Shown here: positions 1-25,524 of the stretch, piece by piece | How the letters are laid out: every line of letters begins with the position of its first letter | How positions within the stretch are numbered: position 1 is the first letter of the stretch | Source of the DNA: an uncultured Phycisphaerales bacterium | GTDB taxonomy: Bacteria > Planctomycetota > Phycisphaerae > Tepidisphaerales > Tepidisphaeraceae | DNA: 64,000 nucleotides | Direction of reading: 5' to 3' | NCBI GenBank assembly: GCA_963755915.1 | Contig: CAVWLP010000003.1 | Coordinates: 448,001 to 512,000 of the forward strand | Made by a program: the position numbers and the translations under genes | Notes under the pieces: generated by a model | Told to the model about the DNA's origin: nothing | Databases searched by the model: none | The model's input: only the letters and a program-made list of their open reading frames with translations

Positions 1-418
1 GTGGCGGAAAGCCGCCGGGGAAATCGTGAGGCGTTCGGGCGGATTGTCCGCCGGTATCAGGGGACGGTTGCCGGGGTGATTTATTCCGTCTGCGGCGATC
101 TCCACCGCAGCGAGGATATCGCTTAGGAGGCATTTCTTTCCGCCTGGAAAAGTCTATCGGGGATGAACGATCCGGGAAAATTGGCCCCTTGCTCTGCCAG
201 ATCGCGCGGCGGAAGGCGGTCGATTTTCAGCGGTCCAATCTACGCGAAAAAAATCGGCTGAGTCATTTATTTCCAGTATTGACCGCCGGCGAATCGTGTC
301 ACGGGGTGCGCCAAAACCAGCCAGGGCGGGGCGCTTCAAAACCGGCCAATGTGCTGACGTATTCTATACCGCATCCGTTCTATCCGACGCAACTGTTCCT
401 TGAGTTATTGGTCCCCGT

Positions 419-5517: not shown

Positions 5518-6967
5518 GGAAACCTCCGACGCATGAACCGGCATGGAGGACGATCTGATTGGGATCGAGCTGGCCACCACACGTGGGGCATAATTGCTGC
5601 TGTTCGGCCCAAGTCCGCAATTGATGTTCAACTTCTCGAAGCGCTTGCTCGGCTTGCACGAAATCTTGCCTACGCGAGGCAATAGCCGCTGTCGCACCGG
5701 CTAGGTCGCGGATTGTCGCCTCGATTTCGCGGGTGTCCGCCATATCCGGCGCGGCCACCAGGGCGGCCAATTGACTGTGAATGACCTCCAAGCGCCGGAG
5801 TGCCGCCGTCGCTTGCGTTAAGGCTTGCACGTCCTGCGTTGGCGAAATCTCATCATCCAATTCGGGTGCAGTTGCCAACGGGCGTAAGATTGTTAGTTGT
5901 TGCTCCGACGCAGTCACGGAATGAGTCAGCGTAGCAATCTGTGCGGCAGTTGTTTGCAAGGTTGCGACCTCGATGATCGTGGGGGGTGGGATGAGTTCGC
6001 AGGTTGCGGCGCACTGACCGTCCAGACGGAGCGCTACGAGCCGAGCAGACTGTAAATCGCGGATGAGTTCTATGAGCGGTCGGTTGTCTTTGGTATCAGG
6101 GCACATTTGCAGTGCCGAGAGGGAAACGGCCCGATTGGTCTGCAATTCCACGTCCAATTCCGTGCCGGATATCGCCCCGATGGCATCTTCTAACGGCTGA
6201 GTATCTGCGAACTTCGGCGGCAACATCAACGCCTGAAACGCCATTGCTTCGGATTGGCGATGGTCCACCAGTGCGCTCCACTGGTCCAACAACTGAATAT
6301 CCTGCGCGAGTTGTCCGATACGTGATGCCAACTGTCCAAGTTCCTCGTGCCGCGACTCTACTTGTCCAACGCTGATTCCAATCTGATCCGTAGCTGCAAG
6401 CACCGCGAGATCTATTGCCAGCTTTTCCGCCCTGGCCTCCAGTTGGATACGTTCTCGGCGAGCGTCCCCCATCTTCTGCTGGTGCCGCTTCTGCATCTCG
6501 ACCAGACTCGCCGCGTCGGACGAAGAAGCAAAAAACTGGGCTGCGTGAGAACCGGGTTTGTCCAACAAGAACACGGGCGATTTCTGTTCGCCGAAGTGGA
6601 TATCAAACTCTCGATTACCTTCGGCTACGACCTTTGGCAATCGGAGCACGTCGTGAAGGCTCGCGGGGATGGCGTTTCGTTCAAGCCTATCGAACAACTG
6701 CCCGTCGATGGTATATCTTGGAGAATTGTTCTTGCGGCACCACTCAACGATGTGACCGTCATCGGTTTCGACAATAACTGAGCATTCCCTTTCATTGTGG
6801 CGAGTGACGTAGGTCGAGTTATCGTTGTGACAGAGAATCTGAAGCGCCGCCACGACGGCGCTCTTGCCACAGTTGTTGGGTCCTACCAGCACGGTCAGGC
6901 CATCCGCTGGTTCGATGACCGTGCGGGCGTGTGACATGAAGTTGACTAACTCGATGCGCCGAATCAC
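5510..6967 (-). CDS. SbcC/Rad50-like ATPase, N-terminal half with coiled coil and zinc hook
   Basis: IELVNFMSH, Walker A GPNNCGKS, Q-loop GEQ and C-terminal CPTCG. No Walker B. Confidence 0.85.
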   Translation of the reverse strand: MIRRIELVNFMSHARTVIEPADGLTVLVGPNNCGKSAVVAALQILCHNDNSTYVTRHNERECSVIVETDDGHIVEWCRKNNSPRYTIDGQLFDRLERNAIPASLHDVLRLPKVVAEGNREFDIHFGEQKSPVFLLDKPGSHAAQFFASSSDAASLVEMQKRHQQKMGDARRERIQLEARAEKLAIDLAVLAATDQIGISVGQVESRHEELGQLASRIGQLAQDIQLLDQWSALVDHRQSEAMAFQALMLPPKFADTQPLEDAIGAISGTELDVELQTNRAVSLSALQMCPDTKDNRPLIELIRDLQSARLVALRLDGQCAATCELIPPPTIIEVATLQTTAAQIATLTHSVTASEQQLTILRPLATAPELDDEISPTQDVQALTQATAALRRLEVIHSQLAALVAAPDMADTREIEATIRDLAGATAAIASRRQDFVQAEQALREVEHQLRTWAEQQQLCPTCGGQLDPNQIVLHAGSCVGGFHA

Positions 6968-7140: not shown

Positions 7141-10100
7141 GTGTCCATTCAAGTGGGCCGCGTCGGCCTCCGCGGCAAGTCTTCAAGCGGCAACTGGCGG
7201 GAGACGGCGAAGGTGTCCATTCAAGTGGGCCGCGTCGGCCTCCGCGGCGGCGATGCCGGGGGGCGGGTTTTTCATAAACGCCTCGTGTCCATTCAAGTGG
7301 GCCGCGTCGGCCTCCGCGGCGATGGAGCGTGGAACTGCCCTCAGGTCGCTATGCAGTGTCCATTCAAGTGGGCCGCGTCGGCCTCCGCGGCTTCCAATTG
7401 GAGGTGCGAAGTGATTTCCTTGTTCAAGTGTCCATTCAAGTGGGCCGCGTCGGCCTCCGCGGCGTTTCGGTTTATACGGACAATGGCGGCAATGCGATGT
7501 GTCCATTCAAGTGGGCCGCGTCGGCCTCCGCGGCCACCATGTTCGCGTTAGCAAAGGATGATGATGCAAGGTGTCCATTCAAGTGGGCCGCGTCGGCCTC
7601 CGCGGCGGCCAAGCGGGCCGGGATTCGTCCCGAAACGCTTCAGTGTCCATTCAAGTGGGCCGCGTCGGCCTCCGCGGCGTGGCGAAGGTGGAGAAGCAGC
7701 CGGCGTTCAAGGGAGTGTCCATTCAAGTGGGCCGCGTCGGCCTCCGCGGCGACCATTATAGAACGAGTTGGAAGCGGATGCGCCCGTGTCCATTCAAGTG
7801 GGCCGCGTCGGCCTCCGCGGCTTAATTGCATCGGGGTTATTCATGGACGCGAAGATGTGTCCATTCAAGTGGGCCGCGTCGGCCTCCGCGGCTCGCGTAT
7901 CCGGTCCGCGTATCGCTAGATTGGTCGCGTGTCCATTCAAGTGGGCCGCGTCGGCCTCCGCGGCAATCTAGATGGATCGGCTAACAGGGTTCGGACGTTG
8001 TGTCCATTCAAGTGGGCCGCGTCGGCCTCCGCGGCAGGGAATTGCAAAGCCAAGGGGTTAACCCAACCGACCGGTGTCCATTCAAGTGGGCCGCGTCGGC
8101 CTCCGCGGCGCCGGGGCCGTGACGGAAATTGCAAATGGGGATTATGTGTCCATTCAAGTGGGCCGCGTCGGCCTCCGCGGCGTTGTGGAGATGAGGACGC
8201 ATCTGGCCGGTGCAAGAGTGTCCATTCAAGTGGGCCGCGTCGGCCTCCGCGGCATCGCGACAGAGCGCGAGATCGAGGGCGGGGAATATGTGTCCATTCA
8301 AGTGGGCCGCGTCGGCCTCCGCGGCTCACTGATACGGCACAGTATGTTAACGGTGTTGTGTGTCCATTCAAGTGGGCCGCGTCGGCCTCCGCGGCCGATA
8401 ATGAAAACATTCACTTTCAAAACAAGGTGATGTGTCCATTCAAGTGGGCCGCGTCGGCCTCCGCGGCCCTGGGGCTGGCTTAAAAACCACATCAAGATCA
8501 GTTGTGTCCATTCAAGTGGGCCGCGTCGGCCTCCGCGGCAAACTACCGCTCCGGGGATTGAAGCGTTTCGCACCCGTGTCCATTCAAGTGGGCCGCGTCG
8601 GCCTCCGCGGCCGTAACGGCGGCTTATGGCCGCAACAATACCCCACGTGTCCATTCAAGTGGGCCGCGTCGGCCTCCGCGGCGTCGTAACAATGCCTCAG
8701 CATGGTCCTGAACATCGTGTCCATTCAAGTGGGCCGCGTCGGCCTCCGCGGCTCAAATATCTTATTTCGCTCTTTTTTTCTTAAGTCGTGTCCATTCAAG
8801 TGGGCCGCGTCGGCCTCCGCGGCAATCCGTCGAATGCGGCATCACCACGTTCGACAGCGTGTCCATTCAAGTGGGCCGCGTCGGCCTCCGCGGCCTGTAG
8901 GATTAAATTGCGTATCTATTCCGTCGAAGGTGTCCATTCAAGTGGGCCGCGTCGGCCTCCGCGGCTCCGACCGCTGCAGCGCTTCGGTGTGATAACGGAT
9001 AGTGTCCATTCAAGTGGGCCGCGTCGGCCTCCGCGGCGCCAATTAACCGCACTCACCAACGCCAGCCTGGTCAAGTGTCCATTCAAGTGGGCCGCGTCGG
9101 CCTCCGCGGCATAAAGAGTTTGGAAATTGAGTAACCAGCAGTATCTCGTGTCCATTCAAGTGGGCCGCGTCGGCCTCCGCGGCTCAAACGCCAAATCCTT
9201 AAACCAACGAGCTTCAAAACGTGTCCATTCAAGTGGGCCGCGTCGGCCTCCGCGGCGCTGTCGTGCCTGTTGTGTTGGTGGCTGATTGTGGGTGTCCATT
9301 CAAGTGGGCCGCGTCGGCCTCCGCGGCGGATCAGTCTGAGCGTCTTCTCGGTGTTCGTATGTTGTGTCCATTCAAGTGGGCCGCGTCGGCCTCCGCGGCA
9401 GATCGACGAAGCCATCCCGGCAGGAGGAGCAGCAGTGTCCATTCAAGTGGGCCGCGTCGGCCTCCGCGGCACAAACACACAGTATACGGCCACCACAACG
9501 ACCGCAGTGTCCATTCAAGTGGGCCGCGTCGGCCTCCGCGGCAGAAGACGGCTGATTACGATACACAGCCGGGCCCAGTGTCCATTCAAGTGGGCCGCGT
9601 CGGCCTCCGCGGCCAGGATGGCAAGGTTCGTAGTTCTTCTGATAAGTCTTGTGTCCATTCAAGTGGGCCGCGTCGGCCTCCGCGGCGCGTAAGGAATTTG
9701 GGATTATTCGTGTTGCAAGGTTGTGTCCATTCAAGTGGGCCGCGTCGGCCTCCGCGGCAGGTGGCTGGTGAGCCAAGTAAGTCAATGCCTTCAGTGTCCA
9801 TTCAAGTGGGCCGCGTCGGCCTCCGCGGCTTCAATATCTTTTTTATATGTTCTAATATTCATTAAGTGTCCATTCAAGTGGGCCGCGTCGGCCTCCGCGG
9901 CACTATCGTCCGATATCTCCCCCAAAAAGGAGAAGGTGTCCATTCAAGTGGGCCGCGTCGGCCTCCGCGGCTTCGTGCCGAAGGCGGGACATGGAAACAG
10001 CAAGTTGGTGTCCATTCAAGTGGGCCGCGTCGGCCTCCGCGGCGCCCATTAGTAGCCATATCTAAACTCCGATATTAAGTGTCCATTCAAGTGGGCCGCG

Positions 10101-10970
10101 TCGGCCTCCGCGGCGCAAGCTGGAAAGGTGAACCGTTTGCTCCAGTACCAGTGTCCATTCAAGTGGGCCGCGTCGGCCTCCGCGGCTGGGAAGTGTCGGA
10201 GAAGATGCCGTACAAAAAATAGTGTCCATTCAAGTGGGCCGCGTCGGCCTCCGCGGCCTCGGATGGCTCGGTCGTCTGCTGGAAATGGCAGTGGCGTGTC
10301 CATTCAAGTGGGCCGCGTCGGCCTCCGCGGCACCGCGTGAGGAGCAGCGGCTCGGAGACGCTCGTGTGTCCATTCAAGTGGGCCGCGTCGGCCTCCGCGG
10401 CCGGCAGATTGATAGCGAGCACGGATCGGTGGCACAGTGTCCATTCAAGTGGGCCGCGTCGGCCTCCGCGGCAAATGTGAACCGCAGGCGTCGCCACGAT
10501 GAAGCCAACGTGTCCATTCAAGTGGGCCGCGTCGGCCTCCGCGGCTGCTGCAAAGCATCGCCGTTTCAAACAGGGAATGCGTGTCCATTCAAGTGGGCCG
10601 CGTCGGCCTCCGCGGCACCGGGACGATTATCGCTGAGGCAAATGGAGGGGCAGTGTCCATTCAAGTGGGCCGCGTCGGCCTCCGCGGCCGTGGAAGCCGC
10701 ATGGGAACGTGCGAGCAACACAGTGTCCATTCAAGTGGGCCGCGTCGGCCTCCGCGGCTAGTGCGAAGTAATACATTCGTCACTCCTGTAAGTGTGTCCA
10801 TTCAAGTGGGCCGCGTCGGCCTCCGCGGCATACCTGGGTGCGTGCAACATCCAGCCGACGTTCCGTGTCCATTCAAGTGGGCCGCGTCGGCCTCCGCGGC
10901 CTCATCTCAGGCTCATATCTCATTACCTATTAGAGTGTCCATTCAAGTGGGCCGCGTCGGCCTCCGCGGC
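7141..10970 (-). CRISPR. CRISPR array: 54 repeats of 36 bp, 53 spacers of ~34-38 bp
   Basis: Repeat on the - strand is GCCGCGGAGGCCGACGCGGCCCACTTGAATGGACAC, with no variants noticed (manual count). Orientation inferred from the GACAC 3' end and tracrRNA pairing. Confidence 0.98.
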
Positions 10971-11225
10971 TGCCGCCCTCGCAAACCCCCGAAAACAAGC
11001 CACTTGTGAGGGCTCTTGCGAGTATAACAGATTTTGACGCAATCGAACGGCCATTTCGGGGACTCCTGACATCCATAAAACCGCGAGAATCGGCTTGTTT
11101 TGGGGCATTGCGAGCGTGCCCTGGACCCCCATTCACCACTGTCGCACTCGCGGCCGAAAGTACGACAGTACCAACCGAGCTGCGAACTGGGGCAGGCCGC
11201 AGAAGCCAACTTGTCAAAGAACGAT
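10971..11225 (-). promoter_or_regulatory. CRISPR leader
   Basis: Apparently non-coding segment between the tracrRNA and the first repeat. Confidence 0.7.
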
Positions 11226-11319
11226 GGCCCAAAGGGCCAACGCGGACCTGTTGAATGCCGAGTGCCAAGCCCATTAAAGGGGAAGACACGTACTCGGAGG
11301 TGATACCGCCTATAGCGGC
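11226..11319 (-). ncRNA. Cas12b tracrRNA
   Basis: 5' hairpin CCGC-UAUAG-GCGG; CCGAGU/ACUCGG stem enclosing GUGUC (pairs with repeat GACAC) and a CCC/GGG hairpin; anti-repeat CAUUCAACAGGUCCGCGUUGGCC (19/23 identical to the repeat complement). Confidence 0.85.
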
Positions 11320-11328
11320 GCAGTCACT

Positions 11329-14300
11329 TTACCACGGGGTTACTGACGCTTCAACGGGCGCATCTTCGCGAGATAAGTGCGCTCGGCGAAGCAATGAAAC
11401 AACCCGGCACCGGACATCATTCCAATATTCAGCAGTGCCTCGCCAAGGGGAATTTGTGTCAATCGGCGAAGCCGAAATATCCCGCCAGAGGTTCACGATC
11501 TCGCGTTCCTTTTTGCCGGCCTTGGACCGGCCCGACTTCTTGCCGGTTTTTGGATCAGGCGTTTCGAGATCGCTCGCCTTAACTGGTACGAGGAAGAGAT
11601 CCGATGGAACGATGAAGCTTCCCTTGGTCTTCTCGGCAAGTGGCGTGTAGGTCGCTGACTCGCATGGAATGAACCACCACTTGCCGGAAAAATCGGGGTC
11701 GAGCAGCGCCTTCATGCCGACATTCGCGGCGGCGTTGAGGTCGGCTTGCAACCCCTTCGCAGCAGGCGAGCACGGGTCGGCTGAGACGAAGAGTTCGCCG
11801 CCATTCATGGGGATGCGGATCGCGGGCGCAAGTTTACGTTCGGAATCCGATTTTGAGGACCACTGTTTCTCGATCGTCACAAAAAATCGATCGCGGGCAT
11901 CACCCTTGTCAGCTTTTTCTTGAGCGACCTTGGCTTGTCGCCGCCACCAGGGTTTGGTCATGAAATCAATGACCGGCACATCAGCGCAGCGGATACCCGG
12001 CGCACCTGTGCGTGAATCCTGGCGAGACGTGTATCCGGCCTGGACTTCGCGGAGATGGAGTCCATGAAGTTGACAGGCTTCCGAAAGATACTTTTTGACC
12101 TTCGATGAGGACCATGACATCAATTGCCTGTTCTCGCGGCGCGTTTGAAGTTCATCGGGACGATAGTTGGTGAGGTTCTCGATCACGACCGCATGACAAG
12201 GAGCGTATTTTGCGGTGGGTTCCTCCACCCGCACCCATTTCATAAGCGTCGATCCATCCGCATTCTTTCGTCGCGTCTTGACCTGCTTCCAATGCCCGCC
12301 AAGCCCTAGCGCCGAACCCGCAATCCGGCTCGCAAGTTGCTTAACGCGCTGCTCGCGCATCTGCTCCATCGCATCAAGGATGGATTGCGCAACGCCAGCG
12401 TTTGTTTCACCCTTCTCCGGTGCGCCGCGTGGCTTATCGGGCTTGGCGCGCATCGCGAACGCTTTGTGCAACTGATAGAGCGACTTCATTGTGGCAATGC
12501 GCGTGAGCGACAGGCCGCCGACGTTCTGCTTCCAGCCAACATCTTCCTTATCGACGCCGGGCAAACGCCGACCCATGATCCAGTCGGTGAGCCAGCGAAA
12601 CTGTGCATATAGACCGACAGCCTTTTCCTTCGTGTCATGATTCGCAGGACTTCCATCATCTGCCTGCCAGCGATTGAGCCAAGCTGCGTGGACGACGCTG
12701 CGATTGGCTGCGGCAAGTTGCTCTGCGACTGATTTGAGTTTCTCCAGCAGTACATCATCATCCTTGCGACGCTGCTGGCGGGTGGGTCCTTCGGCAGTCT
12801 CATCGCGAGGCTTAGGGTCTTCGACCCGCCATCCGTTTGTCACCGTGGCGACGTGTTGGTTCCACAGATCACGCGCGGGCTTGTCATTCCACTTAAACTC
12901 ACTTGCAAGCGCGTGCCAATCGAACAGCGCGTCGGTCATTAGCTTGATATGAGCGGTATCGCCAGGTGTGAAGGGTTTCTCACTGCCGCCGATGCCCGAA
13001 ATGGTCTTGGTTTCCAGATCGAGCGCGTAGGCAATTTTTGCCCGGCGGGTGTGGCGTTTCAGGCCGAGTGCGGTGATGCGCACTGCACGGCCCATCAGCT
13101 CGTCCACTTCCCTTCCCTTGTCGCGATCTTCATCAGCCACCAAGCCAAGATCCGCCGCAAGTTTGGCGACCATCGCGACTTCATTGACCTGGCCCTTTTG
13201 GGAAGCCGCCCGCGCCGCTTTGTCCTCGCCAGGCAGCTTGATAAGGAATTGCCGATCGAGCCGGGCCCACGGAGCGGGATGTGGTGTGCCGTCGGATAGT
13301 TCGTCCGCTCCAATCCGGCGATAAATCGTGGTGCGAACCTTTCCGTTTTCGTCTGTATAGCGCGTATGGAGATAAAGATTCTCCGAACCTGCACCACCAG
13401 CGGATACTATCCTTCCGGAGATTTCTTCTGATAAATCGGCTAATGAAAGCGTCTCCCACACAGCACACGCCGCGGCGAAGCGATGGCCGAGGTCCACTGA
13501 AAGAACTCGAAGGTTGGGCAGACGGGATAGGATAAGTTTAGCGTGGCCGGAACGGGCGTCATTCGTTTGATGCTTGAGCGCGTATTCACCGCCGCGAGAT
13601 GCAAACGGTTTGGCCGGAGCGTCTTCAGAAAATTTTGCGATGTAATCTATCCATGGCCCAGCCGGTTGTAGCTTGGCGGAGAAGGAGACGAGCCAACGGA
13701 TGTGGTCGCGCATCTTTTTCGCTTTTGCATCCCACCCATGGTCTTTGATGTGTTTGGCGATCTTATCAAGCTGTGAACGTGGTGCTTGCAGCCGGCCGTT
13801 CCAGTCGGCCTGATTGAAAACGCCCAGAATGCTCACCGGTGACTTTTCATTCGCGCCCACGGCTGCGCGACCCAGGCGGTCGGCGCGGGTCACGTTGATT
13901 GCGGCATCGCCCGTCGATCGGTTTTGTAGCCCCAGATCTTTCGTCAGGCGTTTGCACGACCAGCGCATTGGAATGCTGTTGTCCAACTTCCCCCCATCCC
14001 ACAGCCCCATCGAAAGGGCGTGACGAGAATCCAGCCATGTGACCTGTTCGCGGGCTTCCCGTAAATCAGCCTCCGCTCGCTTAAGCTTTAATTCGGCGTC
14101 GGCCTGTTTCTCAGGTGTTTTGGTTTTGGCGAGCCGTTCCTTCGTTTTCTCCAACTCTGTCGCCCGCCGCGCAATAGTGGCCTTTGCATCAGTCAGTTTC
14201 GACGCGGCATCATGCACGGCGAAATGGATTTCCCACCGCGAATTGCCGAAGTCGCAGAAGACCGGGTGCGACAACGGATCGGGATGACGATACGCCGGCA

Positions 14301-16027
14301 CCTTGAATCGCTTCTGTTTGGCGAGCGCGTCGGTGGCGGTCGCGTAGTCGATCAGCGGCTGGGGCATCGCTTCGCCGTTCATCCGCCAGACAGCAATGGC
14401 ATCATCGGCGGCCAGCGCCTCAAAAAGCTGGATGTCACCAAACTTGTCGATGTCCGGATCGGCCTGCACGTTGCGGGCGACGGCAATGCGATCCTCGACC
14501 GTTTTACAGCTCGAACCACTCCATTTGGCGACCACTTCTTTCCAACCACCCACGGCGCGTCGGCGAATTCGATAGGCATCAATTGCTCCGGTTGCAGTGG
14601 AGCGATCATCGCAAAACCTCGCCAGCCACACGTTGATCTCGGCGGGCACCTTTTCGATCTTCGCCGCATCGATTTTGAACTTCTGCCGTTCGGATTCAGC
14701 GCGTTTGATCCACGAATGTCCGATCGACACTCGCCGGGCGGCGTGGTCGAGCATGACGGCAAACTCGGAATGCCGCGCTGGTCCGCCTTGTTGGAGATAG
14801 GTAAACCCACACGCTGATTCGACTTTTTCGAGAATCTTGTCGGACCACGGCGCCGGCCCTTGCCGCCGGTATTGGACTTGCACTTCTCACAGTCTTCGGT
14901 GGCGACGGTCTTCAGTTTCGTGAGGTCGTCCCCGGAAATCAGATCGACTCTGGATTCCCAAGCCTTGATAATGTTCCGCGTCGCACTCTTGTAGCCTGGT
15001 CCGCTGATCAGGCTGAGAATGCCGACGGCATCACTTGACTCAGGAGAAAATGCGACGAGCGACTCTGCCAGCGAATGGAGTGCTTCCGACCCTAATGCAA
15101 ACGCGGTTGCGTTGGCCGCCCATGAAGCCATCGCGTCGTAGGCTTTTGCCATTTCTGAAAAATCTGCCCCCTTGCCTGTGCCGAATCGGCTGCTAAGCCA
15201 TTGGCCGGCCTTCTGCACGAGGTCTTTGGCTTTGTCATCTTCCGCCGGTGGGTCGTCTTCGGAGTTATCAGGTGGATTGATCGGCGCAAGATAAGATTCC
15301 CGGGCGCCAAAGAACGGTTCGAGCAAGTCCCACACCTCTTCGCGCGTCAGCGATGGCCCCACTTGTTCCTGGGCGGCAGCAAACATGGCACTTCGGTTGA
15401 TCCACACGGCATCGTCACGAATCGCTGCCGAAAGGGATGGTTCACAATCGGCGATCCAGCTTCCAAAATCGGCTCCGGTTACGCCGCGATCGGCAAGAAT
15501 CTTCCGAAGCGCCCCGATCACTTTTTCATCCCTCTCGGATTGCGTTTTTTCGCCGCTAGCCACGACGAACTTCTCGTGCGAATCGTGTTGCTTTGGCGAC
15601 GATTCCACGCTTAGCCACGACAGGGACAGCAAAATGCGGCGATCGCGGATGCGAGCGCTCCGCCGGCGTTCAATCTCCGCGATGGCATCCCGCTCGGTGG
15701 GATCGGTGTCCTCCCTTTTTTTTCCCTTGATTAAATCTTTCAACGTGTTCGCGGTGAGTTTTTTCCCTTCGACCGACTGGGAATCAAAGCACGGTTCATC
15801 GGCCAACGAATGATCCATCCCGCCGCGCAGAGTTAGCAGCCAATCGCCGAAAACTTTGGCTCCATTGTTAACGGCCTCATGCGTTGCCCAGACGGCTGCG
15901 CGCAACCGTGATCCGTTTTGTCAACGCCGCGAAGTCGAAGCGTGTACGCCCGCTGCGTTTGAAATAACGCTGGAATAGGGCGATCCACGGTGTTTGAGTT
16001 TAGCTGTTTGGCTGCGGACTGCGGCAT
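11329..16027 (-). CDS. cas12b: Type V-B effector Cas12b, ~1,560 aa (frameshifts near 15905 and 14850)
   Basis: N-terminus QRAYTLRL...AVWATHEAVN; RuvC-I LRVLSVDLG, RuvC-II VVIENL...ENRQLMSWS, YTSRQDSRTGAPGIRC and RuvC-III QADLNAAAN. Adjacent to array, tracrRNA and cas4-cas1. Confidence 0.9.
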
Positions 16028-16130
16028 TTGTAGTCATCTCCCGTATTACTTGACCAACGCAATTATCAGGGCCAGAATTGCGAGATTCGGGTACTGTCTC
16101 CATTCGAGTTTTTCCGTACCTTGTATCAGC

Positions 16131-16273
16131 CCAGAAGAGCGGGGGGACCGCAGAACGGCGCGAGAGCTTCTAGAATCTCGCTTCCCTGGCGGCCGCCAGG
16201 CTCATCCTCCGCTCTTCTGGCCCGATAGTTTGGCCCTCATGCCAAAATCAGAAATAGTCGCCCAACTTATCGG
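16131..16273. ncRNA. Candidate structured RNA upstream of cas12b
   Basis: 12-bp stem 16131-16142/16209-16220 closing three hairpins, plus a CCGATA/TATCGG stem containing a TTTGGC/GCCAAA hairpin. Confidence 0.45.
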
Positions 16274-16291: not shown

Positions 16292-16342
16292 ATTTGAATC
16301 GCTTGGGCTATGTTTGTCAAATAGGGCAACCCGACATAAACT
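16292..16342. promoter_or_regulatory. Overlapping divergent sigma70-type promoters
   Basis: + strand: TTGTCA (16314-19), N17, TAAACT (16337-42), ending 6 nt before the sgRNA-like element. - strand: TTGACA (16320-15), N17, TCAAAT (weaker -10). Confidence 0.6.
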
Positions 16343-16348
16343 TGATTG

Positions 16349-16467
16349 GCCGCTATAGGCGGTCACAATATCGCTGAACGTGTCGTCCCCTTCAATGGGA
16401 TATGCACAGCGGCGCGAGAGATTAAATCGCGTGACACATGTCGGGTTCGGCTGCCCAACTGCCGAAC
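16349..16467 (+). ncRNA. Natural single-guide-like RNA (tracr paralog + repeat 3' end + guide)
   Basis: Shares GCCGCTATAGGCGG, ACGTGTC and CCCCTT(C/T)AATGGG with the tracrRNA; continues with a GCGCGA/TCGCGT hairpin, GACAC, guide ATGTCGGGTT and a 3' hairpin GTTCGGC/GCCGAAC. Confidence 0.75.
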
Positions 16468-16641
16468 TATTAGATGACAACCATCCCGCTTTCCGCGTCA
16501 GGCAGACTCTCGCCCAACATGTCACGGGGTGCGCCAAAACCAGCCAGGGCGGGGCGCTTCAAAACCGGCCAATGTGCTGACGTATTCTATACCGCATCCG
16601 TTCTATCCGACGCAACTGTTCCTTGAGTTATTGGTCCCCGT

Positions 16642-17532
16642 TCACGCCGTCTGGCCGGCGGATACCCCCACATCAGAAGACAACGGCGGCTCTGTCACGG
16701 TGTCTTCCGGGGGGGAGCACCCTTCATCGCCGGCGGTACTCCGCCGTCCTTTTGGATTTGTCTTTTCCGGTGTCCCGGATTGGCCTGCCGTGAGCGAAGT
16801 CGAATGGCCCCCATGCCGAAGGCGGTAGCTCTTGCCGGTGATGTTGATGATCGTGGCGTGCTGCAGGAACCGATCCAGAATGGCCGTGGCCGCCGGCACG
16901 TCGCCGATCAGCTTGGCCCAGTCCTCCAGTGGACGGTTGCTGGTCATCATCGTCGAGCGGTTCTCGTGCCGGCGCATGACGATCTCCAGCAGGCATTCGC
17001 CGCTGCGCCGCGGAAGCTGCTTCATTCCCATGTCGTCGATGATAAGCAGATCAGGCTTGAGATACCGGGCCAGCGTCTTGTCCTGGGCTCCCAGATCCTC
17101 GTCGCCTAAAAAGTCGCGGGCCAGGTCGAAGATGGATCGGTACAGGACCACCAAGCCGCTCTTGATCGCCTGGTGTCCGATGGCCTGGGCCAAAAACGAT
17201 TTGCCCACGCCGGGCGGACCCAGCAAGAGCACGTCACGTTTGTCACGAATGAACTGGCCGGCGGCCAGATCGTGAATCTGTTTGCGTTTGATGGAGGTGT
17301 TGAAGGAGAAGTCGAACTCGTCGAGGTTTTTGGTGTCGCGGAACATCGCCGCCTTGACGCGCCGGCCGATCTGCCGGCTGGATCGGACGTTCAGTTCATC
17401 CTGAAGGATCAGTTCCAAAAACTCACTGTGGTCGAGCCGATTGCCGGCCGCCTCGCTCAGGCGAACTTCAAGGCTGCTCGCCAGACCTGAAAGCCGAAGT
17501 TGCTTGAGCGTCTGCATCAACGAAGGTCTCAT
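16642..17532 (-). CDS. istB: IS21 helper ATPase IstB
   Basis: Same protein as copy 1 except one H/R difference. Confidence 0.95.
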   Translation of the reverse strand: MRPSLMQTLKQLRLSGLASSLEVRLSEAAGNRLDHSEFLELILQDELNVRSSRQIGRRVKAAMFRDTKNLDEFDFSFNTSIKRKQIHDLAAGQFIRDKRDVLLLGPPGVGKSFLAQAIGHQAIKSGLVVLYRSIFDLARDFLGDEDLGAQDKTLARYLKPDLLIIDDMGMKQLPRRSGECLLEIVMRRHENRSTMMTSNRPLEDWAKLIGDVPAATAILDRFLQHATIINITGKSYRLRHGGHSTSLTAGQSGTPEKTNPKGRRSTAGDEGCSPPEDTVTEPPLSSDVGVSAGQTA

Positions 17533-19330
17533 GGGGTGGACTCCCTTCGGCTCTGCTCAGGGCAGGCCTGTAAAGGTTGTGCGGCAGGCAAAGCCTCCGC
17601 TTGGGTGATTGCGTCGCGTACGAACTGTCCGTAATCGGCCAGTCCGCGGATGATTGGATGTTCCTGAACAAACTCGAAGTGTTGTTGAACCGGCGCGCCG
17701 TTTTGGTGTTCGATGAGCTGCCGCAGGGAGCGCAGGTGATACGCGCCATGCCCCAGAGCAATCTCGCAGGCTCGTTCCACGGCCGGTCGCGGCTGCTGAT
17801 TGGCCAGCGACAGCAGCCCCATCAACACGCGCACGCCTTCGATGCCGCGATGCTGAAGCATTGACTGCGCCACTGCGTGGCGTGCGGCCCGATGCATTCG
17901 ATCCGCTGGAGAAGCCAGGTCGTTCCACGCTCGATGCCGCTGATCTTCTCCGGCAGGATATGGGCGTCTTGCGTCGAGAACCTGCCCGGCGGACGCTGCG
18001 CGTGCAGAGCGATCGCACGCATCTTCTGATCGAACAGCCGGACCGTGTGCCCGTCCCACCGCGCCCAGACCCGCTGGCCCAAAAACTCCGGCGGGACCGA
18101 ATAGTACGCCCCCTTGATCTCCACGTGCCCGTCGCGGTGAACACTGCGCAACGCCTCGGTGAAAAGATCGAATCGCACCGGCGGCAGAGCCAACAGTGCC
18201 GGCTTCTCTACCTGCTCGAAGACTTCCTTCACCTGCCGCCGCGTCGTGCCGTGGATGCGCGTGTCGGCCACGCTCTTCTCCCACGTCAGCAGATGCGCGT
18301 TCTGATCCGAGAGCGAGGCGAATTGCCGGCCTTTGAGAGCATTGCTCTTCACATAGCCGATGCCCCGCTCGATCTTCCCCTTGTGCCGCGGCGTGTACGG
18401 CTTGGTGGGCAGAATGGCGATTCCATAATGTTCGGCGAACGACCGGACCTTGGGACACAACTCCGCCTCGAACCAGTCCGCCCGCGTCACCGCCGCGCGA
18501 AGATTGTCGATCACCAGCGCTGACGGCATCCCGCCGAAGTGCGTAAAGGCATTTTCCAGACAACGCAGAAAATCATCGGTCGTCTGCCGCTCCACCGCCT
18601 CGGCGTACCCCTTGCGGCTGTGGCTCAGCACAATGCGGAAGACCCAGGTTGCTTTGCGTTTGCCGTCAGGACCGACCAGGGCGCACCCCGGCCGAAGTCC
18701 ACCTGCGCCTCGGCTCCCGGCTCGCATTCCATCCGGCGAAAGGGCGCCGGCGCGGCAGCCGAGAGCTTCTTGATGAACCGGCGCACGCTGTAATAGCTGC
18801 CGGCATAGCCGTGATCGCTGGAGATGTCTTGATAAATCCGCTGGGCCGTCAGCCCGGCTTCCAACTTCTGAACAATGACCTCACGCCAGGGCGATGCCGT
18901 ACTGACCGACCCGATCGGCGCGCCGGATAACCCGGTGGGCGCGCTCTCCGAGCCGCCTGCGGCGAGCACCGTCGAGCCGCCTGCGGCGAGCACCGTCGAG
19001 CCGCCTGCGGCGAGCACCGTCGAGCCGCCTGCGGCGAGCACCGTCGAGCCGCCTGCGGCGAGCACCGTCGAGCCGCCTGCGGCGAGCACCGTCGAGCCGC
19101 CTGCGGCGAGCACCGTCGAGCCGCCTGCGGCGAGCACCGTCGAGCCGAGGGGCGCGCTGGCCGGTTTTGAATCCGATCCGGGCGCCGCAGGATCGCCGCC
19201 CGACAACCGGATGTGGCGTCCAACGGTCTCCCGGTGAACGCCGAGTTGGCGGGCGATGTTCCGATTGGACCAGCCGCTGCGCAAGTGCCAAAATTGCTTG
19301 TACTTCCGCCATCTTGAGTTGATTGGCCAT
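17529..19330 (-). CDS. istA: IS21 transposase IstA (frameshifted in the sequence)
   Basis: Same motifs as copy 1. Confidence 0.9.
18950..19147. repeat. 24-bp tandem repeat (8 units) inside istA
   Basis: Same unit as 2727-2852, with three more copies. Confidence 0.95.
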
Positions 19331-19698
19331 CCCACCATTGGCTTGCGGCAACCGCCGAAAGCCAAGGTCGATAACCCAATCTCCTGTGCCTCAAAATGGC
19401 CGGTTTTGGCGCACCCTCAATTGGCCGGTTTTGCGCCCCCATGACACCCAACACGGTTGCCGCCTCTCTTGCGGCCTCCTCGTTGCTGCCAAGGTCCACG
19501 ATAAGGAGCTGGTCTTCCTTGAGATTGAGCACTTCGCGCGCCGCGTTTTCCAGCCGCACACGGTCGATGGCCTTGAGTGTGCAGTAGAACACGGAATACT
19601 GCCACGGTTCGCCGTATGCCTTCATGACTTTGTGGATTCGACGAAGGCGCTTGTCATTGCGAACGTCATAACAGACCAGATAGCACCGGCGCATGGTT

Positions 19699-21504
19699 TT
19701 ACCTCGTGGTCAGAAAAGCCAGCGTCGGCACCTCGCCAAGAAGCCACGCGGCCACAAGACGGGCATGCAGCATGAGCATGCGGCGATAACTTAGCCGGTA
19801 CTCGAATGCCGGGTGCTTCACTTCCGTGTCCATTCGTCGGCCATAGGCAGCGAAGAATCCTTTTCGTCCTGCGTCGGTTAGAGCGCAGCCGGAGGCGGTA
19901 TTAAGAAAATGCCCCTCGGTCAGTTCCCCGCGGTTGAATGCCGAGACGGCGATCGAATCGGCGATGAGCGGTCGGAATGGTTCCATTAGGTCCAGGGCGA
20001 GTGCGGGACGGCCCGGTCGCGTGGCGTGCAGTGCTCCGAGTGTCGGCTCCAGGCTTGCCAACCGACACGCGACCACGCATTCATTGGCCAGCATCGAATA
20101 GGCAAAGGAAAGAACCGCGTTGACTGGATCGGGTGGTGGACGGCGTTGTCGGCCATTGCTGTCGAATCGAGCAGCGATCTCGGCGACGCCTTTCTTAAAC
20201 ATGCCAGCAAAATGGGCAAAGTAGATCGCGGCGGCATTGCCTTCATGCCCACGCAGTTCGTCCAATGTGGTTGATCGCTCGGCACCAGCAACGCAGGTTT
20301 GAAGATCAGGCCCGACCCGCGATGGCAGCGCCGAATGATTTCGCATCAGCAGCGTGCGTTGATTAGCGATCTTGGCGACCGTCACTGCACGAGCCAATTC
20401 AAGCGTTTTTTCGGGTCGATCCAGAATGCGGATTTGGGCACCGCGTACGGCGGCGCTGACTGGCCCCAACGGGTCCATCATTGCCACCAGCCGACCTGCG
20501 GCGGTCAGAAAAGCAACCGGCACTTCGTGATCGGCGAAAACGGTTAGTGCTTGGGTCGATATCTGAACAGCGCCCAAAACTGCCAGCGATTCCATGTTGG
20601 CAAGCGGTAGGTCTCGGACCAGTTCACCATCTTTGTCGATGACCCTCACGGACTGGCCACGAACGCCAACGCGGATGCCCTCGCGCATAAGCACAACATG
20701 GATACCGTCGTCGCGCGGCGGCCAGAGTTTTCGCGGTGTAAGTTGCTCATCAACGGACTGACCGTTGACGGTGAGCGCCGTGAGCCGCTGGTGATTGATC
20801 TCGTCCGGCAAACAGATCGGCTGGAGCGAACATCGCGGGCAACGCGGATCATTGACCAGTGGCGGCGGACGCGGTCCTTGTGCGTCCCGCTTAGCCGCTT
20901 CTAATTCAGCCAGTGCGTTGCGTTTCAATGCCTCATCAACCACCACGCGAAGTTTGAGTTTCTCTGCGGCATAATAGAGATACGCTTCGGTGACCGTGTA
21001 TCCGGCCTCTTCAAGCAGAATCGCTTGCAAGCCGATTTGTACCCGGTCAGTCGGCCAAGGTTCTGGCCCTGGTAGCAACCGAGGTTCCTCCATCATCTCA
21101 TCAGTCGGTTCAGCGATCTCACCGTAGCGCTTCGGTTTTCCCTTGCGATACTCAACTGGAATCGCCGTCGTGCCCTGGATTTCGGCCAAGTCGAGCGTCG
21201 CCGTCAGGCCGAGCCGATCACTCGTGAGCACGAGGCTGCGTACCGATTTAGGTCGCTCTGGATCAGCCTCGGCAGTGGCTTCTTCTAATTTCTCAATGGA
21301 CTTTTGCCCCTTTTTGCCATTCTTGCCGTTTGATTCCAATGCCGGCGGAGCCTCGCTCGGACGATCTACACGGCGGTGGGTGCCCGCGCCCTGTTCCGTG
21401 TCGGCGCTGGGCAGAAAGACTCCCTCGACTGTCATGTAATAGAACAGGCGCGGACAATAAGCGTGTTCCGCGACGCCGCGGGATGGCCAGTGAACGGATT
21501 CCAT
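19699..21504 (-). CDS. cas4/cas1: Cas4-Cas1 fusion
   Basis: Cas4: YCPR, DLAE, PVEYRKG, CPRCSLQPIC. Cas1: LRGHEGNAA, RRPPPDPVNAVLSFAY, GALH, LALDLMEPFRP. Confidence 0.95.
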   Translation of the reverse strand: MESVHWPSRGVAEHAYCPRLFYYMTVEGVFLPSADTEQGAGTHRRVDRPSEAPPALESNGKNGKKGQKSIEKLEEATAEADPERPKSVRSLVLTSDRLGLTATLDLAEIQGTTAIPVEYRKGKPKRYGEIAEPTDEMMEEPRLLPGPEPWPTDRVQIGLQAILLEEAGYTVTEAYLYYAAEKLKLRVVVDEALKRNALAELEAAKRDAQGPRPPPLVNDPRCPRCSLQPICLPDEINHQRLTALTVNGQSVDEQLTPRKLWPPRDDGIHVVLMREGIRVGVRGQSVRVIDKDGELVRDLPLANMESLAVLGAVQISTQALTVFADHEVPVAFLTAAGRLVAMMDPLGPVSAAVRGAQIRILDRPEKTLELARAVTVAKIANQRTLLMRNHSALPSRVGPDLQTCVAGAERSTTLDELRGHEGNAAAIYFAHFAGMFKKGVAEIAARFDSNGRQRRPPPDPVNAVLSFAYSMLANECVVACRLASLEPTLGALHATRPGRPALALDLMEPFRPLIADSIAVSAFNRGELTEGHFLNTASGCALTDAGRKGFFAAYGRRMDTEVKHPAFEYRLSYRRMLMLHARLVAAWLLGEVPTLAFLTTR

Positions 21505-21673: not shown

Positions 21674-24600
21674 ATGGACACGACGGCATGGCGCAGGGGA
21701 AATCCCCACAGCTTCTCCTGGAGTTCAACGCGGTTCGCAACAGCGATCTTTTCTCCAACCATTGGCTGGAGAATCGCTTGCCCCTCGAACCGGAATGGAC
21801 CGAGGCGCGCAGAGGCATACGCCGCCATAGAGACGCTGACGGAACTTTGGAAAGTCCAAAAGAAACGTGTCGAGAAATACGACGGTGAGCAAATGCTCGA
21901 AGAGCAGTTCATTCAGCCGGTGCTACGCGCACTCGGCTGGAAGGACCGCATGCTCTATCAGACGTTTCTGCGCGGGCGCAAGCCAGACTACGCGCTCTTC
22001 CTTGATGACGGCCAGGTCGAGACGGCGCTCGCGAAGGGAAAGAATCATCCTGATTTTTGGAAGAGTCCGGTGATGGTCGCGGATGCAAAGGCTTGGGCCA
22101 TATCACTGGACCGCAAGGCGACCGTGGAAGCCAAGCGCGAATACCCGCCGGAGCAAATTGAGTGGTATTTGAACAACAGTCAGCTCGACTACGCCATTTT
22201 GACCAATGGCCGGTTGTGGCGGCTCGTCCCCAGGCAACATGATCCTGGCCAAGCCCGTTTTCAGACTTACCTAGAAGTTGATTTGCCACAACTCCTTGAC
22301 GAACGAATGGAGGTGCTCGATTCCAAGGTCTGGCCGGGATTCGACGACTTCCTGCGTTTTTTTCTGTTCTTTTCGCCGGTGGCACACCGCGAAACCGCCG
22401 AACGTCCCTCGCTTATTCGGCGCGCACGCGCGGGCAGTAGCGAGTACAGATTGGGGGTCGGGGAAGGTCTCAAGCAGCGAGTATTTGACGCATTGTCGCT
22501 TTGTGTCGAAGGGTTCGTACGGCATGAGGCGAACAAGTTGACTTCGTCGCCCGCCGACATCGAACTTTGTCGGCAACAAAGTTTCACACTCCTTTACCGG
22601 CTTCTCTTCGTGCTATTTGCCGAGGATCGAAAGCTGCTCCCATACAAGATCGACCGGGCCTACACAGACAACCGATCGCTTGGACGATTTCGTGACGAAA
22701 TCGCCAAGACGTTGGACCGCCTCGACCAAGGAAAGGACGTGGAGTTTCCTGAAAAACAGGTTCAATATTGGCCCGATCTGTTATCGCTCTTCGACCTGAT
22801 TGACGCCGGTGCCGCTCGCTATCGCGTACCCGCATACAACGGCGGCCTCTTCGATTCCGAACAGCATCCATTTCTTCGCGACAAAGTCCTTCCAGACGGA
22901 TATTTGGCCCGTGTCATTGATCGTCTGAGCCGTGCACCTGACCCGAAGCATCCCCACCTCGGGCTGTTTCGGGTCGATTACCGCGATCTCGCGATCCAGC
23001 ATTTAGGCAATGTGTACGAAGGGCTTTTGGAACTTCGTCCAAAAATCGCCGAGTCTGATCTGGTTGTCATTCGCACCACGAGCGCGAGACGACGCGGAGA
23101 AATATTTGCCTGCCGACGAACCGCTACCCAAGGGTTACGAGGCTACCGGTCAGCGATACGAAAAAGGTTCGGTGTACCTCGTGACCGACAAGGGCGAACG
23201 GCGCGCTTCCGGCAGTTATTACACACCGGATCATATTGTTAGCTACATCGTCGAGCGGACCCTTGGGCCGATTCGCGAGGGAATCGACCATCAACTGACA
23301 AGCGATATTGAGCGCACGAACAGGAATTGAAGCGTGCCCGTGGAGAAAATCGCGCACAGTTGGTTACTCGGATAGACACGCTCAAAGGCGATTTCGATGA
23401 TCGGCTGCTTCGGTTGCGGGTGCTCGATCCAGCCATGGGTTCTGGTCATTTCTTGATTCGGGCCTGCCAGTATTTGGCGGAGCAGGTCGCCACAAATCCA
23501 CGCGCAAAGGATGCTTCCCATACTGGCGGTGCTGAAGAATCGACGCTGGTTTACTGGAAGCGACGCGTCGCGGAGTCGTGTCTCTACGGAGTCGATCTCA
23601 ATCCGATGGCGGTGGAGTTGGCCAAACTCGCACTTTGGCTGGAAACCGTCTCGGTGAACCAGCCACTCACATTCCTCGATCACCATCTTCGTCACGGCAA
23701 TAGCCTCGTCGGCACGAGCGTCGAGTCCTTGGGCGTACTGCCCGGAACGGAACTCGTCAGCAACCGTTTTGAGCAGCAAGTTAAGCAACGTCTGCCGCGA
23801 CTCCTTGATGCGTTGGTCATGATTCGGCGCACGCCGTCTGACACGGTTGAACACGTGAAGGAGAAAGACAAGCTGTTCCGACGAACCTTTGAGCCGGTGC
23901 GCCAACCGTTTCTATTGTCGGCTCATGCCTGGTGTTCGTTCTTTTTTGCAAAGGCGGAAGAGCGGCTGAACAACACCCAATATGACGGGTTGATTGATGC
24001 GCTGGGGCAACCGAAAAAATTTGAAGCGATAGCATCATCTCCGCCGTGTTCAATAGCGATTCAGACGTGCGGGCCGAACGGCATCGCCGCGTTTCATTGG
24101 GAACTTGAATTTCCGGAAGTGTTCTTCGGTGAAGCCGGGTATCGGAGCGACCGGGGATTTGACGCGATCATTGGCAATCCACCGTATGACGTACTTTCTG
24201 AAAAGGAGACCGGCCGCGATCTGTCGCAACTCAAGGAGTTTATCGACAGGATGCCGGTGTATGCACCGTCCAAAGTTGGCAAAAACAACCTTTACAAGTT
24301 GTTTATTTGCCGGGCGATTTCACTTCTTGCGCCAGCGGCGCGATTGGGCTTCATTACACCGATGGCCGTTCTGGGCGATGAAGCCACTTCAAAGATTCGC
24401 CGCGAGATATTTCGTATCGGCCGCTTTCAGGCAATAGAAGCCTTTCCGCAGAAGGATGATCCCAATCGCCGCGTGTTTCGCGACGCAAAGCTATCGACAG
24501 CCGTTTTCATTCTACAACGCGTAGATGACGCTGATGGTCGGAAACAACCCTTTCAATCGCAGGTACACCCGGCGGACAGAATCGACGAGGTATCGGCCAT

Positions 24601-25524
24601 CCTTACACTCTCGGCGGAAGAAATTCCAAGTTACGATCCTGAAAACCTCACGATTGTCAGTACATCGGATGCCGACTGGCGGCTTGCCACGCGAATCACG
24701 CGCAGTGGAAGACTCGAACGGCTCGGGCATTTCGCACAATGCACTCAGGGTGAAGTCAACGAGACGGTGGCACGCGGCAAAGGTTATCTCGCGGATGCGA
24801 TCACGGACGGGGAACTCGTGGTACGCGGCTCAAATATCTGTCTGTACGTTCCACGCCTTGCATCGCAGGGTGATGACCTATTCGTCTCTGTACATCGATT
24901 CCTGGCCGGTAAGGGCGAAGATACGAAAGCATTTGATCATCGCTGGGCACGGGTCGGACTCCAGGAAAGTTCGCCGCAAAATAACTTCCGGCGGATCATT
25001 GCATCGTACATCGGTGCGGGCAAATTCTGCAATCACAAGGTCAACTATTTTCCGAGCGAAAATCATCCGTACCACTTGAATTTGTCCTTGCAGTTTTGAA
25101 TTCAAAGCTCGCGGATTGGTATTTTCGCCTGGGAAGCACTAATGCGGCCGTCAGCCACTACCAGCTTCATAATCTTCCCTGCCCGTCCTTTGCTAAGCAA
25201 TCTACTCCAGCGGACGCCCGGATGCTCAGCCAGGCGGTGGCAGCAATTAATTCCGCAAAGCTTTCTGATGTTCCCACAATTTTGGCGGCGGGATTAAGTG
25301 ATTCACCGTTCAGTCCTGCCGTTCGCGACACAATCTTCGAGGCGGTCGGGCGCATCATGGCAATTGAGTCTGCGCGTGGCGATATTGCCCGAACCGAACG
25401 ATCTGCCCTGGAGAACAAAGCCCAGCCCTATCAAGACCTGATCGACCAGTTGTTTTATCGCATGGCGGGTTTGAGCAACGAGGAAGTCACTGGGCTGGAA
25501 GGACGTCTAGCTCGCATGTTGTAA
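21674..25524 (+). CDS. Type IIG/Eco57I-like fused restriction endonuclease and amino-methyltransferase (frameshifts near 23085, 23320, 25055)
   Basis: PD-(D/E)xK-like KPDYALF...ADAK and LTNG, YNGGLF, GSYYTP, VLDPAMGSGHFL, IIGNPPY, and a C-terminal LNSKL..WYF specificity region. Confidence 0.85.

Follow-up and report, generated by a model that had tools for sequence, protein, structure and literature searches.

A probable natural single-guide RNA gene beside cas12b in a type V-B CRISPR locus, with a predicted target in its own promoter

The window examined here, a stretch of 64,000 nucleotides (nt) from an uncultured Phycisphaerales bacterium (assembly GCA_963755915.1, contig CAVWLP010000003.1, positions 448,001 to 512,000), contains a type V-B CRISPR-Cas locus on its minus strand, in which Cas12b, a Cas4/Cas1 fusion, Cas2, a trans-activating CRISPR RNA (tracrRNA) and a CRISPR array are all present. 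The intergenic stretch between cas12b and cas2 measures about 440 base pairs (bp), and its plus strand carries a second tracrRNA-like scaffold. This element, hereafter copy 2, is a separate gene about 5 kb away from the canonical tracrRNA (copy 1), and its 3′ end abuts the cas2 stop codon. On the evidence set out below, we consider it probable that positions 16349-16467 of the plus strand are a separate gene for a natural single-guide RNA (sgRNA) of the adjacent Cas12b, that this RNA would be autorepressive via its own promoter, and that it derives from a tracrRNA copy in which the anti-repeat and the 3′ part of the repeat have been replaced by a cis hairpin and the last 5 nt of the repeat. 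The features of the locus are collected in Table 1.

The two copies have in common the 5′ hairpin motif GCCGCTATAGGCGG, which occurs exactly twice in the window, namely at 11306-11319 on the minus strand and at 16349-16362 on the plus strand. They can be aligned over about 64 nt, and besides this hairpin they share the heptamer ACGTGTC and a CCC..GGG hairpin. The stem flanking these last two elements has been exchanged, yet it still pairs (CCGAGT/ACTCGG in copy 1, CGCTG/CAGCG in copy 2). In copy 2, stem 1 (5 bp, with a 5-nt loop) is at 16349-16363; stem 2 is formed by CGCUG at 16372-76 and CAGCG at 16407-11, and encloses GUGUC together with stem 3, which is formed by CCC at 16388-90 and GGG at 16397-99. 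The minimum free energy of the predicted fold is -45.8 kcal/mol (z -2.46).

The anti-repeat of the copy 1 tracrRNA is where one would expect it, and pairs with the CRISPR repeat at 19 of 22 positions, 11 bp of them uninterrupted. No such anti-repeat is present in copy 2: only 16 of 22 positions pair, with a 7-nt run, and they do so at unrelated places. Its place is taken by a cis hairpin, which is predicted to mimic duplex 1 of the repeat:anti-repeat (R:AR) pairing, followed directly by the tag GACAC. A search for the CRISPR repeat, of which copy 2 carries only those last 5 nt, found no copy in the intergenic region. The first 10 nt after the tag, ATGTCGGGTT, have their complement, AACCCGACAT, at 16328-16337; there follows AAA, i.e., TTT on the minus strand. 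That is, a 10-nt seed matches a pseudo-protospacer with a 5′ TTT protospacer-adjacent motif (PAM) just upstream of the scaffold. Seed positions 8-10 are drawn into a 3′ hairpin (16445-16467). Apart from this last hairpin, all of these parts, from the exactly preserved 5′ hairpin to the minus-strand match directly 3′ of TTT, had been proposed in a first-pass annotation made from the window alone; coordinates and fold agree with it throughout, as do the positions of the two promoter-like sites discussed below, one overlapped by the target and the other divergent from it.

Table 1. Features of the type V-B locus, in window coordinates.
Feature	Position	Strand	Remarks
CRISPR array	7141..10970	-	54 repeats of 36 nt, repeat end ...GGACAC
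Canonical tracrRNA (copy 1)	11215..11319	-	scaffold core, anti-repeat and terminator-like hairpin (11225-11239); 88.1 bits
cas12b	11329..16027	-	long ChCas12b-like form, about 1560 amino acids; NCBIfam, Pfam and PDB matches
Remnant of 59-residue small membrane ORF	16046..16084	-	only the final ~13 codons, with the stop, remain; L056 and L070 have the intact ORF
Strongly structured stretch with long outer stem	16130..16220		lies where the small ORF is interrupted
cas12b-facing promoter-like site, TTGACA-N17-TCAAAT	16292..16320	-	-35 at 16315-16320, -10 at 16292-16297
Promoter-like site of sgRNA-like gene, TTGTCA-N17-TAAACT	16314..16342	+	consensus scan; 6 nt before first base of scaffold
Pseudo-protospacer with PAM	16328..16340	-	16337 down to 16328, with 5′ TTT PAM at 16340-16338
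Scaffold core of copy 2	16349..16412	+	stem 1 hairpin, stem 2, GUGUC, stem 3; 61.1 bits, E 8e-11
Cis hairpin, GCGCGA-N9-TCGCGT	16412..16432	+	5 Watson-Crick pairs and one G-U pair
Repeat tag GACAC	16433-16437	+	last 5 nt of the CRISPR repeat; can pair with GUGUC at 16380-16384
Guide region	16438..16467	+	10-nt seed at 16438-16447
cas2, 3′ end	16469..16519	-	last 16 codons and stop, severed by insertion sequence
IS21-family element	16520..19446	-	IstB and IstA pieces; 7-bp target duplication
cas2, 5′ part	19447-19694	-	
cas4/cas1 fusion gene	19699-21504	-	

The relation of copy 2 to tracrRNAs was assessed with a covariance model that had as its sole basis three genuine tracrRNA cores, those of copy 1 and of two relatives whose Cas12b is about 50% identical; copy 2 itself was excluded. 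A first model that did include it was given up, since MAFFT had misaligned its stem. The tracrRNA-only model locates the tracrRNA downstream of cas12b in most related loci, and scores copy 2 as a member of the same scaffold family (see Table 1 for score and expectation value, E). In an alignment of 69 matches, which was fitted to the model, 95.4% of the cells in the three helices are paired, with compensatory changes at 14 of 14 pairs. No scaffold beyond copies 1 and 2 was found in the genome, and no Rfam family matched anywhere in the window. Two further candidates in the intergenic region were rejected. The resemblance of 16095-16108, a possible degenerate repeat end, to the end of the CRISPR repeat (12 of 14) is within chance given the offsets tried, and a similar match lies inside a gene at 5388-5407; that of 16150-16169 to 16404-16423 (20 nt, 85%) is at the same level as other chance pairs. 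In one related locus (L127, 9231-9335), the tracrRNA core is followed by a tandem partial second copy covering model positions 23-62.

The window Cas12b matches the NCBIfam Cas12b equivalog (E 9e-242), the Pfam family C2c1_RuvC-like, and, in the PDB, ChCas12b (9kln_A, a chain of 1496 residues; E 2.9e-261), whose sgRNA can be compared with copy 2. In the ChCas12b sgRNA, 75 nt come from the tracrRNA and 16 nt from the repeat, and 24 nt form the guide; there are 5 bp in stem 1, 6 bp in stem 2 and 3 bp in stem 3; R:AR duplex 2 consists of 5 bp made by the last five repeat nucleotides, and five pairs are seen in duplex 1 (PMC12204704; structures 9KLN-9KLQ). Stem 1, the stem 2/stem 3 unit, R:AR duplex 2 and R:AR duplex 1 all have their counterparts in copy 2, in the same order and at nearly the same spacing. 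When C16437 is counted as -1, all parts of copy 2 are 2 nt off the published positions (stem 1 starts at -89, as compared with -91..-77 in ChCas12b), and the length from the RNA start through the tag is 89 nt versus 91 nt. The cis hairpin occupies the exact place of the shortened, loop-closed R:AR duplex of the engineered sgRNA, and in both RNAs the guide stands directly 3′ of the tag. The engineered RNA, however, has a 24-nt guide and cuts DNA, whereas the natural element has a seed of 6-10 nt and then a hairpin; the natural element also comes with a promoter-like site of its own, and its target is in the very locus that encodes it. The anti-repeat that pairs in trans with the CRISPR RNA (crRNA) in a canonical type V-B tracrRNA is absent from copy 2.

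For ChCas12b, the PAM is 5′-TTN, cleavage demands at least 20 nt of complementarity, and in one state resolved by cryo-electron microscopy the heteroduplex is ordered only at base pairs 1-9 (PMC12204704). Thus, binding without cleavage would be expected for copy 2.

To place the element in a wider context, we fetched 159 related cas12b loci, 79 from species-representative genomes and 80 from metagenomes, where near-identical contigs occur. The covariance model was used together with a sensitive nhmmer search of the 900 nt that precede cas12b; the latter covered the 150 loci with a locatable Cas12b N-terminus, 8 of which had less than 300 nt of upstream sequence. A second scaffold is present in 8 of the 150 loci (L056, L070, L107, L102, L131, L141, L099 and L093), which gives nine elements including the window. 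In all eight, the element lies between cas2 and cas12b, on the strand opposite to cas12b, and reaches the stop codon of cas2 with its 3′ end. In 61 loci cas2 is directly upstream; here the distance between cas2 and cas12b is 305-799 nt in the 8 carriers and 35-207 nt in the 53 non-carriers. Three weak nhmmer matches upstream of cas12b (L184, L185 and L186; E 0.16) were without hairpins and tag, and were dropped.

Every one of the nine elements has the core, a short cis hairpin that differs in sequence from one to the next, and the tag, which is GACAC except in L102, where it is GGCAC. In that element (8548-8611, plus about 20 nt downstream) the core reads GUGCC, while the CRISPR repeat of the same locus ends in GACAC and its tracrRNA has GUGUC; i.e., the tag and the core of the element have undergone a compensatory change that keeps them paired. 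After the tag there follows a short single-stranded stretch and then usually a hairpin, which in L141 is a classical terminator. In L107, a tRNA-Glu(CTC) gene (328-405) is situated between the element and cas12b.

The Cas12b of the window is only 44-46% identical to those of L056 and L070. Nonetheless, the three loci do not differ in the -35, in the target together with its PAM and -10, in the core, stem arms and tag, or in the seed; the differences are in loops and spacers. The adaptation proteins of the window are nearest to those of L056 (Cas4/1 87.5%, Cas2 97.5%), and its Cas12b is nearest to that of L110 (64%, versus 46% for L056). This pattern suggests an exchange of modules, with a putative breakpoint near a degenerate small open reading frame (ORF) beside cas12b.

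To evaluate the targets, the guide was defined as the 20 nt after the tag, and the longest match was read from guide position 1. A TTN-flanked seed match is found in 8 of the 9 elements, always on the opposite strand and starting exactly at the first nucleotide after the tag. The seed is of 10 nt with a TTT PAM in the window, 8 nt with TTT in L056 and likewise in L070, 9 nt with TTA in L141, 8 nt with TTA in L107, 7 nt with TTG in L099, 6 nt with TTG in L102, and 8 nt with TTG in L093; L131 has neither seed nor PAM. Seven of the eight targets are 6-13 nt upstream of the scaffold start. One seed is shared by the window, L056 and L070, and the other five differ, which makes six distinct guide-target pairs. 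Since six different seeds each match their own target, guide and target covary.

These matches were subjected to several controls. A search of 300 nt on both strands without a PAM requirement brings up the same sites as best matches; for the window, the site is the sole seed of at least 5 nt under these conditions. Every one of the eight sites has TT at PAM positions -3 and -2, for which the background frequency is 0.03-0.15. When the guide start is moved by 1-6 nt either way the match is lost, except for an offset of +1 in the three loci with a TTT PAM. Among 66 non-cognate guide-promoter pairs, 62 match over 3 nt or fewer, three over 4 nt and one over 6 nt. With 2000 shuffled guides per locus, a seed as long as the observed one arose in 0.1% of trials at most; for the window, none of the 2000 yielded 10 matching nt beside a TTN PAM in the 120 nt upstream. 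The first-pass annotation had considered a chance match improbable, and had envisaged second copies with covarying guides and targets at other cas12b loci; the controls bear out the former, and the eight additional loci, with matches in 8 of 9 elements and six seeds, the latter. Its notion of a stand-alone sgRNA is likewise supported, by this recurrence, by the TTN-flanked seeds and by the ChCas12b-like architecture, while the repression that it envisaged is a prediction, to which we now turn.

The promoter-like site assigned to copy 2 has the same promoter-to-start geometry as that of the true tracrRNA, which is TTGAAG-N17-TAAAGT-N6-G. (The latter site, at 11327-11355, is situated in the final codons of cas12b, with its -10 overlapping the stop codon of that gene.) In the window, the target covers the spacer of TTGTCA-N17-TAAACT as well as the first base of its -10, and the PAM is inside that -10; binding should therefore shut off the RNA's own gene. 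The target is also 7 bp from the -35 of the promoter-like site that faces cas12b. This second site is kept in L056 and L070, with a -10 of TCAAAT or TCCAAT, and the spacer between its hexamers is not kept. Toward cas12b, a promoter-like -35 starts 18-24 nt after the PAM in the window, L056, L070, L099 and L107, and at the PAM itself in L102; in each of these loci the cas12b-facing -35 would lie under the PAM-distal part of the Cas12b footprint. The PAM-bearing strand is always the sense strand of cas12b, and the PAM faces a polymerase coming from cas4/1-cas2. In Cas12a-based repression, a PAM facing the oncoming polymerase is the blocking orientation.

In the window, cas12b is divided into three frames, with apparent frameshifts near 14848 and 15902. 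Contigs from other public runs have one extra base at these places, namely a G behind 14848 (runs X2 and X5) and a C behind 15902 (runs X1 and X2); with both restored, cas12b is a single open frame of 1568 codons. Because of these extra bases, and because the genome assembly is in 3 contigs and 81% complete, we read the frameshifts as errors: both are single-base deletions introduced by the assembly, and cas12b is intact in the population. Thus, the Cas12b effector is probably intact. Other genes of the same genome may look broken through single-base errors of the same sort.

As to the neighbouring genes, cas2 is split 16 codons before its stop by an insertion sequence (IS) of the IS21 family, of which the genome has about 30 near-identical copies; another of these is near window positions 300-3200. 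The copies vary in the unit number of a 24-bp tandem repeat within the transposase region (18901-19188 in the window). The CRISPR locus is flanked (21674-25099 and 4564-6967) by a gene for an Eco57I/MmeI-like methylase with a partner ORF on one side, and by genes for an AAA-ATPase and a metallophosphoesterase on the other; these are possibly further defence genes.

The mechanism that we propose is as follows. One RNA of about 120 nt would supply all that tracrRNA and crRNA normally give, with the spacer replaced by a seed of 6-10 nt and the remaining 3′ tail mostly locked in a hairpin. Cas12b loaded with this RNA would recognise the TTN PAM within the -10 of the RNA's own promoter. The resulting R-loop would be too short to license cleavage, and Cas12b would stay bound on the back-to-back promoter region. 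The occluded -10 would shut off the sgRNA gene, and transcription toward cas12b would be lowered as well, either through occlusion of the adjacent -35 or, because the PAM faces that direction, through a roadblock to read-through from cas4/1-cas2. The outcome would be a negative feedback that sets the level of Cas12b, and that loosens when crRNA:tracrRNA competes for Cas12b or when an inhibitor blocks it. Transcription, loading onto Cas12b, binding without cutting and repression are what we infer from the arrangement of the sequence; taken together, it indicates that the natural sgRNA probably represses both itself and cas12b.

Several observations weigh against this interpretation. Among 14 listed sequencing runs, none is an RNA run that contains the stretch. 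The start, the end and the very existence of the RNA rest on consensus promoter matches, from which Planctomycetota promoters may deviate, and any effect on cas12b transcription, beyond the RNA's own promoter, likewise depends on promoter-like sites that match a consensus. The 3′ hairpin of copy 2 overlaps part of the seed. Seeds of 6-8 nt, as in other loci, fall short of those in the known cases (11 nt in tracr-L, a Cas9 regulator considered below), and may bind too weakly. The target of L093 is about 71 nt upstream, in AT-rich DNA, and L131 has the full element with no seed of at least 5 nt within 300 nt and none of at least 7 nt in its 6.2-kb locus. The PAM of the window Cas12b is not derivable from its array, as the spacers of the whole array had no protospacer in the window's genome (bar one 25-nt match, E 0.006) or in a phage collection. 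The element is also patchy, and therefore dispensable: it is present in 8 of 61 loci of the same gene order, and its carriers are scattered on the Cas12b tree (a quick FastTree reconstruction, support values unexamined). We read this scatter as the likely product of module exchange and loss, as for tracr-L. Lastly, the window's cas2 is split by the IS and its small ORF is degenerate, so the locus may be decaying.

The small ORF is also the basis of the foremost alternative. Between the sgRNA-like gene and cas12b, L056 (4089-4268) and L070 (8718-8897) have a conserved ORF of 59 amino acids with a C-terminal hydrophobic helix, which begins some 12 nt past the cas12b-facing -10. Public assemblies contain three further homologues, in which the hydrophobic part is invariant; L141 has an analogous ORF of 56 amino acids in the same place (between 1840 and 2092), and the window has the remnant listed in Table 1. 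The structured stretch at the point of interruption (a 251-nt fold around 16130-16220, z -3.3, with a 12-bp outer stem) was considered as a repeated mobile element, which is ruled out, as it is unique in the genome. Given the ORF, the element might be chiefly the antitoxin half of a CreTA-like safeguard, in which Cas12b and the RNA repress the gene of a small membrane protein and autoregulation of cas12b is secondary. Loss or inhibition of Cas12b would then release a toxic peptide, and the window would keep the RNA half only. CRISPR-repressed toxins are indeed known for other types (10.1101/2023.03.10.532045; 10.1101/2024.01.05.574328). An intact small ORF, however, is present in only 3 of the 9 element loci, and it matches no Pfam family; its toxicity is putative, and its product may be no more than a co-transcribed small protein. 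No small ORF is found in L107, L099, L102, L093 and L131, and these loci and the window keep the element without an intact ORF; all but L131 keep the seed match too. As an account of the element at large, we therefore regard the safeguard as quite unlikely.

A narrower version, confined to L056, L070 and perhaps L141, we regard as unlikely. It holds that the element is half of a type V-B safeguard, i.e., a CreTA-like addiction or abortive-infection circuit built from a tracrRNA and not from a mini-CRISPR. If this were true, Cas12b would be held by the sgRNA at a bidirectional promoter, from which both cas12b and a small membrane peptide are expressed; once this promoter was freed, by an anti-CRISPR or because the effector was lost, Cas12b would be overproduced and the membrane-damaging peptide made. 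The window would then be a version in which the peptide gene decayed after the exchange of the Cas12b gene.

The complementarity between the guide and the upstream segment could also reflect an RNA-RNA helix and not DNA targeting, if a longer transcript began upstream of 16328 and its two 10-nt segments closed the scaffold for stability or processing. Any conserved helix would give covarying complementary segments, and the transcript ends are predicted only. A helix, however, needs no TTN, whereas the upstream segment is TTN-flanked in 8 of 8 cases, on the strand and the side demanded by a Cas12b PAM. In 7 of 8, moreover, this segment overlaps a promoter-like -10 at the same distance from the scaffold start as in the true tracrRNA; therefore, it should not be transcribed. 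The downstream segment, for its part, begins exactly at the position of a spacer start, according to the offset control. We thus hold the RNA helix to be very unlikely.

Hardly more probable than a long shot is that the RNA acts as a sponge, i.e., that it mainly occupies Cas12b in competition with crRNA:tracrRNA, and that the promoter match only limits its own dose. This would agree with the retention of the full scaffold, and with a target on the RNA's own -10, where the most direct effect would be on the RNA itself; sequestration has been reported for viral Cas9 sgRNAs (10.64898/2026.06.01.729453). The element, however, belongs to the CRISPR locus of the host, not to a mobile element, and its constant place beside cas12b, with a cas12b-facing -35 under the putative footprint in several loci, suggests control of cas12b. 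A pattern scan of viral contigs for phage-borne copies found no scaffold; of two pattern matches, one is inside a terminase-like gene and the other is without the 5′ hairpin, and both were rejected. Finally, that copy 2 is a functionless, decaying tracrRNA duplicate with a chance inverted repeat is scarcely credible: the IS in cas2, the degenerate small ORF and the absence of the element from most related loci would fit, but eight other loci with conserved architecture, compensatory changes in the stems, the tag-to-core pairing and the seed-target pairs, and controls none of which reaches the observed matches already contradict it.

A natural, self-repressing sgRNA of Cas12b, the reading that we prefer, has close parallels among known systems. 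In Streptococcus pyogenes type II-A, tracr-L has an 11-nt guide, and repression by it has been shown (Workman et al.; 10.1101/2020.05.21.102756). In both cases one RNA provides tracrRNA and crRNA parts, a truncated guide matches a PAM-flanked site at a cas promoter, guide and target covary, the distribution on the effector tree is patchy, and DNA is bound without being cut, which for the Cas12b element is a prediction, as is its repression. In contrast, tracr-L is a long isoform of the tracrRNA gene, with its guide at the 5′ end, and works with Cas9, whereas the Cas12b element is a dedicated second gene with a 3′ guide and a 5′ TTN PAM, and its target is also on the RNA's own -10.

CreR and CreA RNAs, which stem from degenerate mini-CRISPRs, are known in types I-B, I-E and V-A, and Cas12a is autorepressed in this manner; the CreR circuit has been proposed to sense crRNA load and anti-CRISPRs (10.1101/2023.03.10.532045). 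They too are non-canonical guides with partial complementarity to a PAM-flanked site beside a cas promoter. However, they are crRNA-like (degenerate repeat, spacer, repeat) and tracrRNA-free, while the Cas12b element is a tracrRNA scaffold with 5 repeat nt, and repeat-like sequence flanking a spacer-like sequence is not found in copy 2. A repeat-similarity survey by Shmakov et al. includes 18 V-B loci and gives no mini-array for them (PMC10120712); a search of that type, at a threshold of 16 nt, would miss an element with only 5 repeat nt. Phages carry compact Cas9 sgRNAs that are likewise stand-alone and natural, about 90-120 nt long, and silence their own promoter (10.64898/2026.06.01.729453). 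These serve viral counter-defence, whereas the Cas12b element is host-encoded, inside a type V-B locus. In our literature search, with most subscription journals and supplementary files outside it, no Cas12b or type V-B regulator of such a kind was found, in agreement with the first-pass annotation, which knew of no such description. By analogy, then, the element would act like tracr-L and like the CreR of Cas12a, but would be neither a tracrRNA isoform nor a mini-CRISPR.

Cas9 (through tracr-L), Cascade and Cas12a (through CreR) are known to repress themselves under the guidance of an RNA. For the tracrRNA-dependent type V systems no such regulator is known, and the element would fill this gap. 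Regulators of this kind are invisible to surveys of repeat similarity. The proposal is easy to test, given six natural guide-target pairs and a closely related effector that works in cells and has a solved structure. The natural minimal scaffold, of 89 nt up to the guide, is a template for Cas12b-based repression tools, for which a short seed followed by a hairpin would, if our reading is correct, be a useful route to binding without cutting. If it is correct, evolution would also have reached the single-guide RNA a second time, for Cas12b, and as a dedicated gene.

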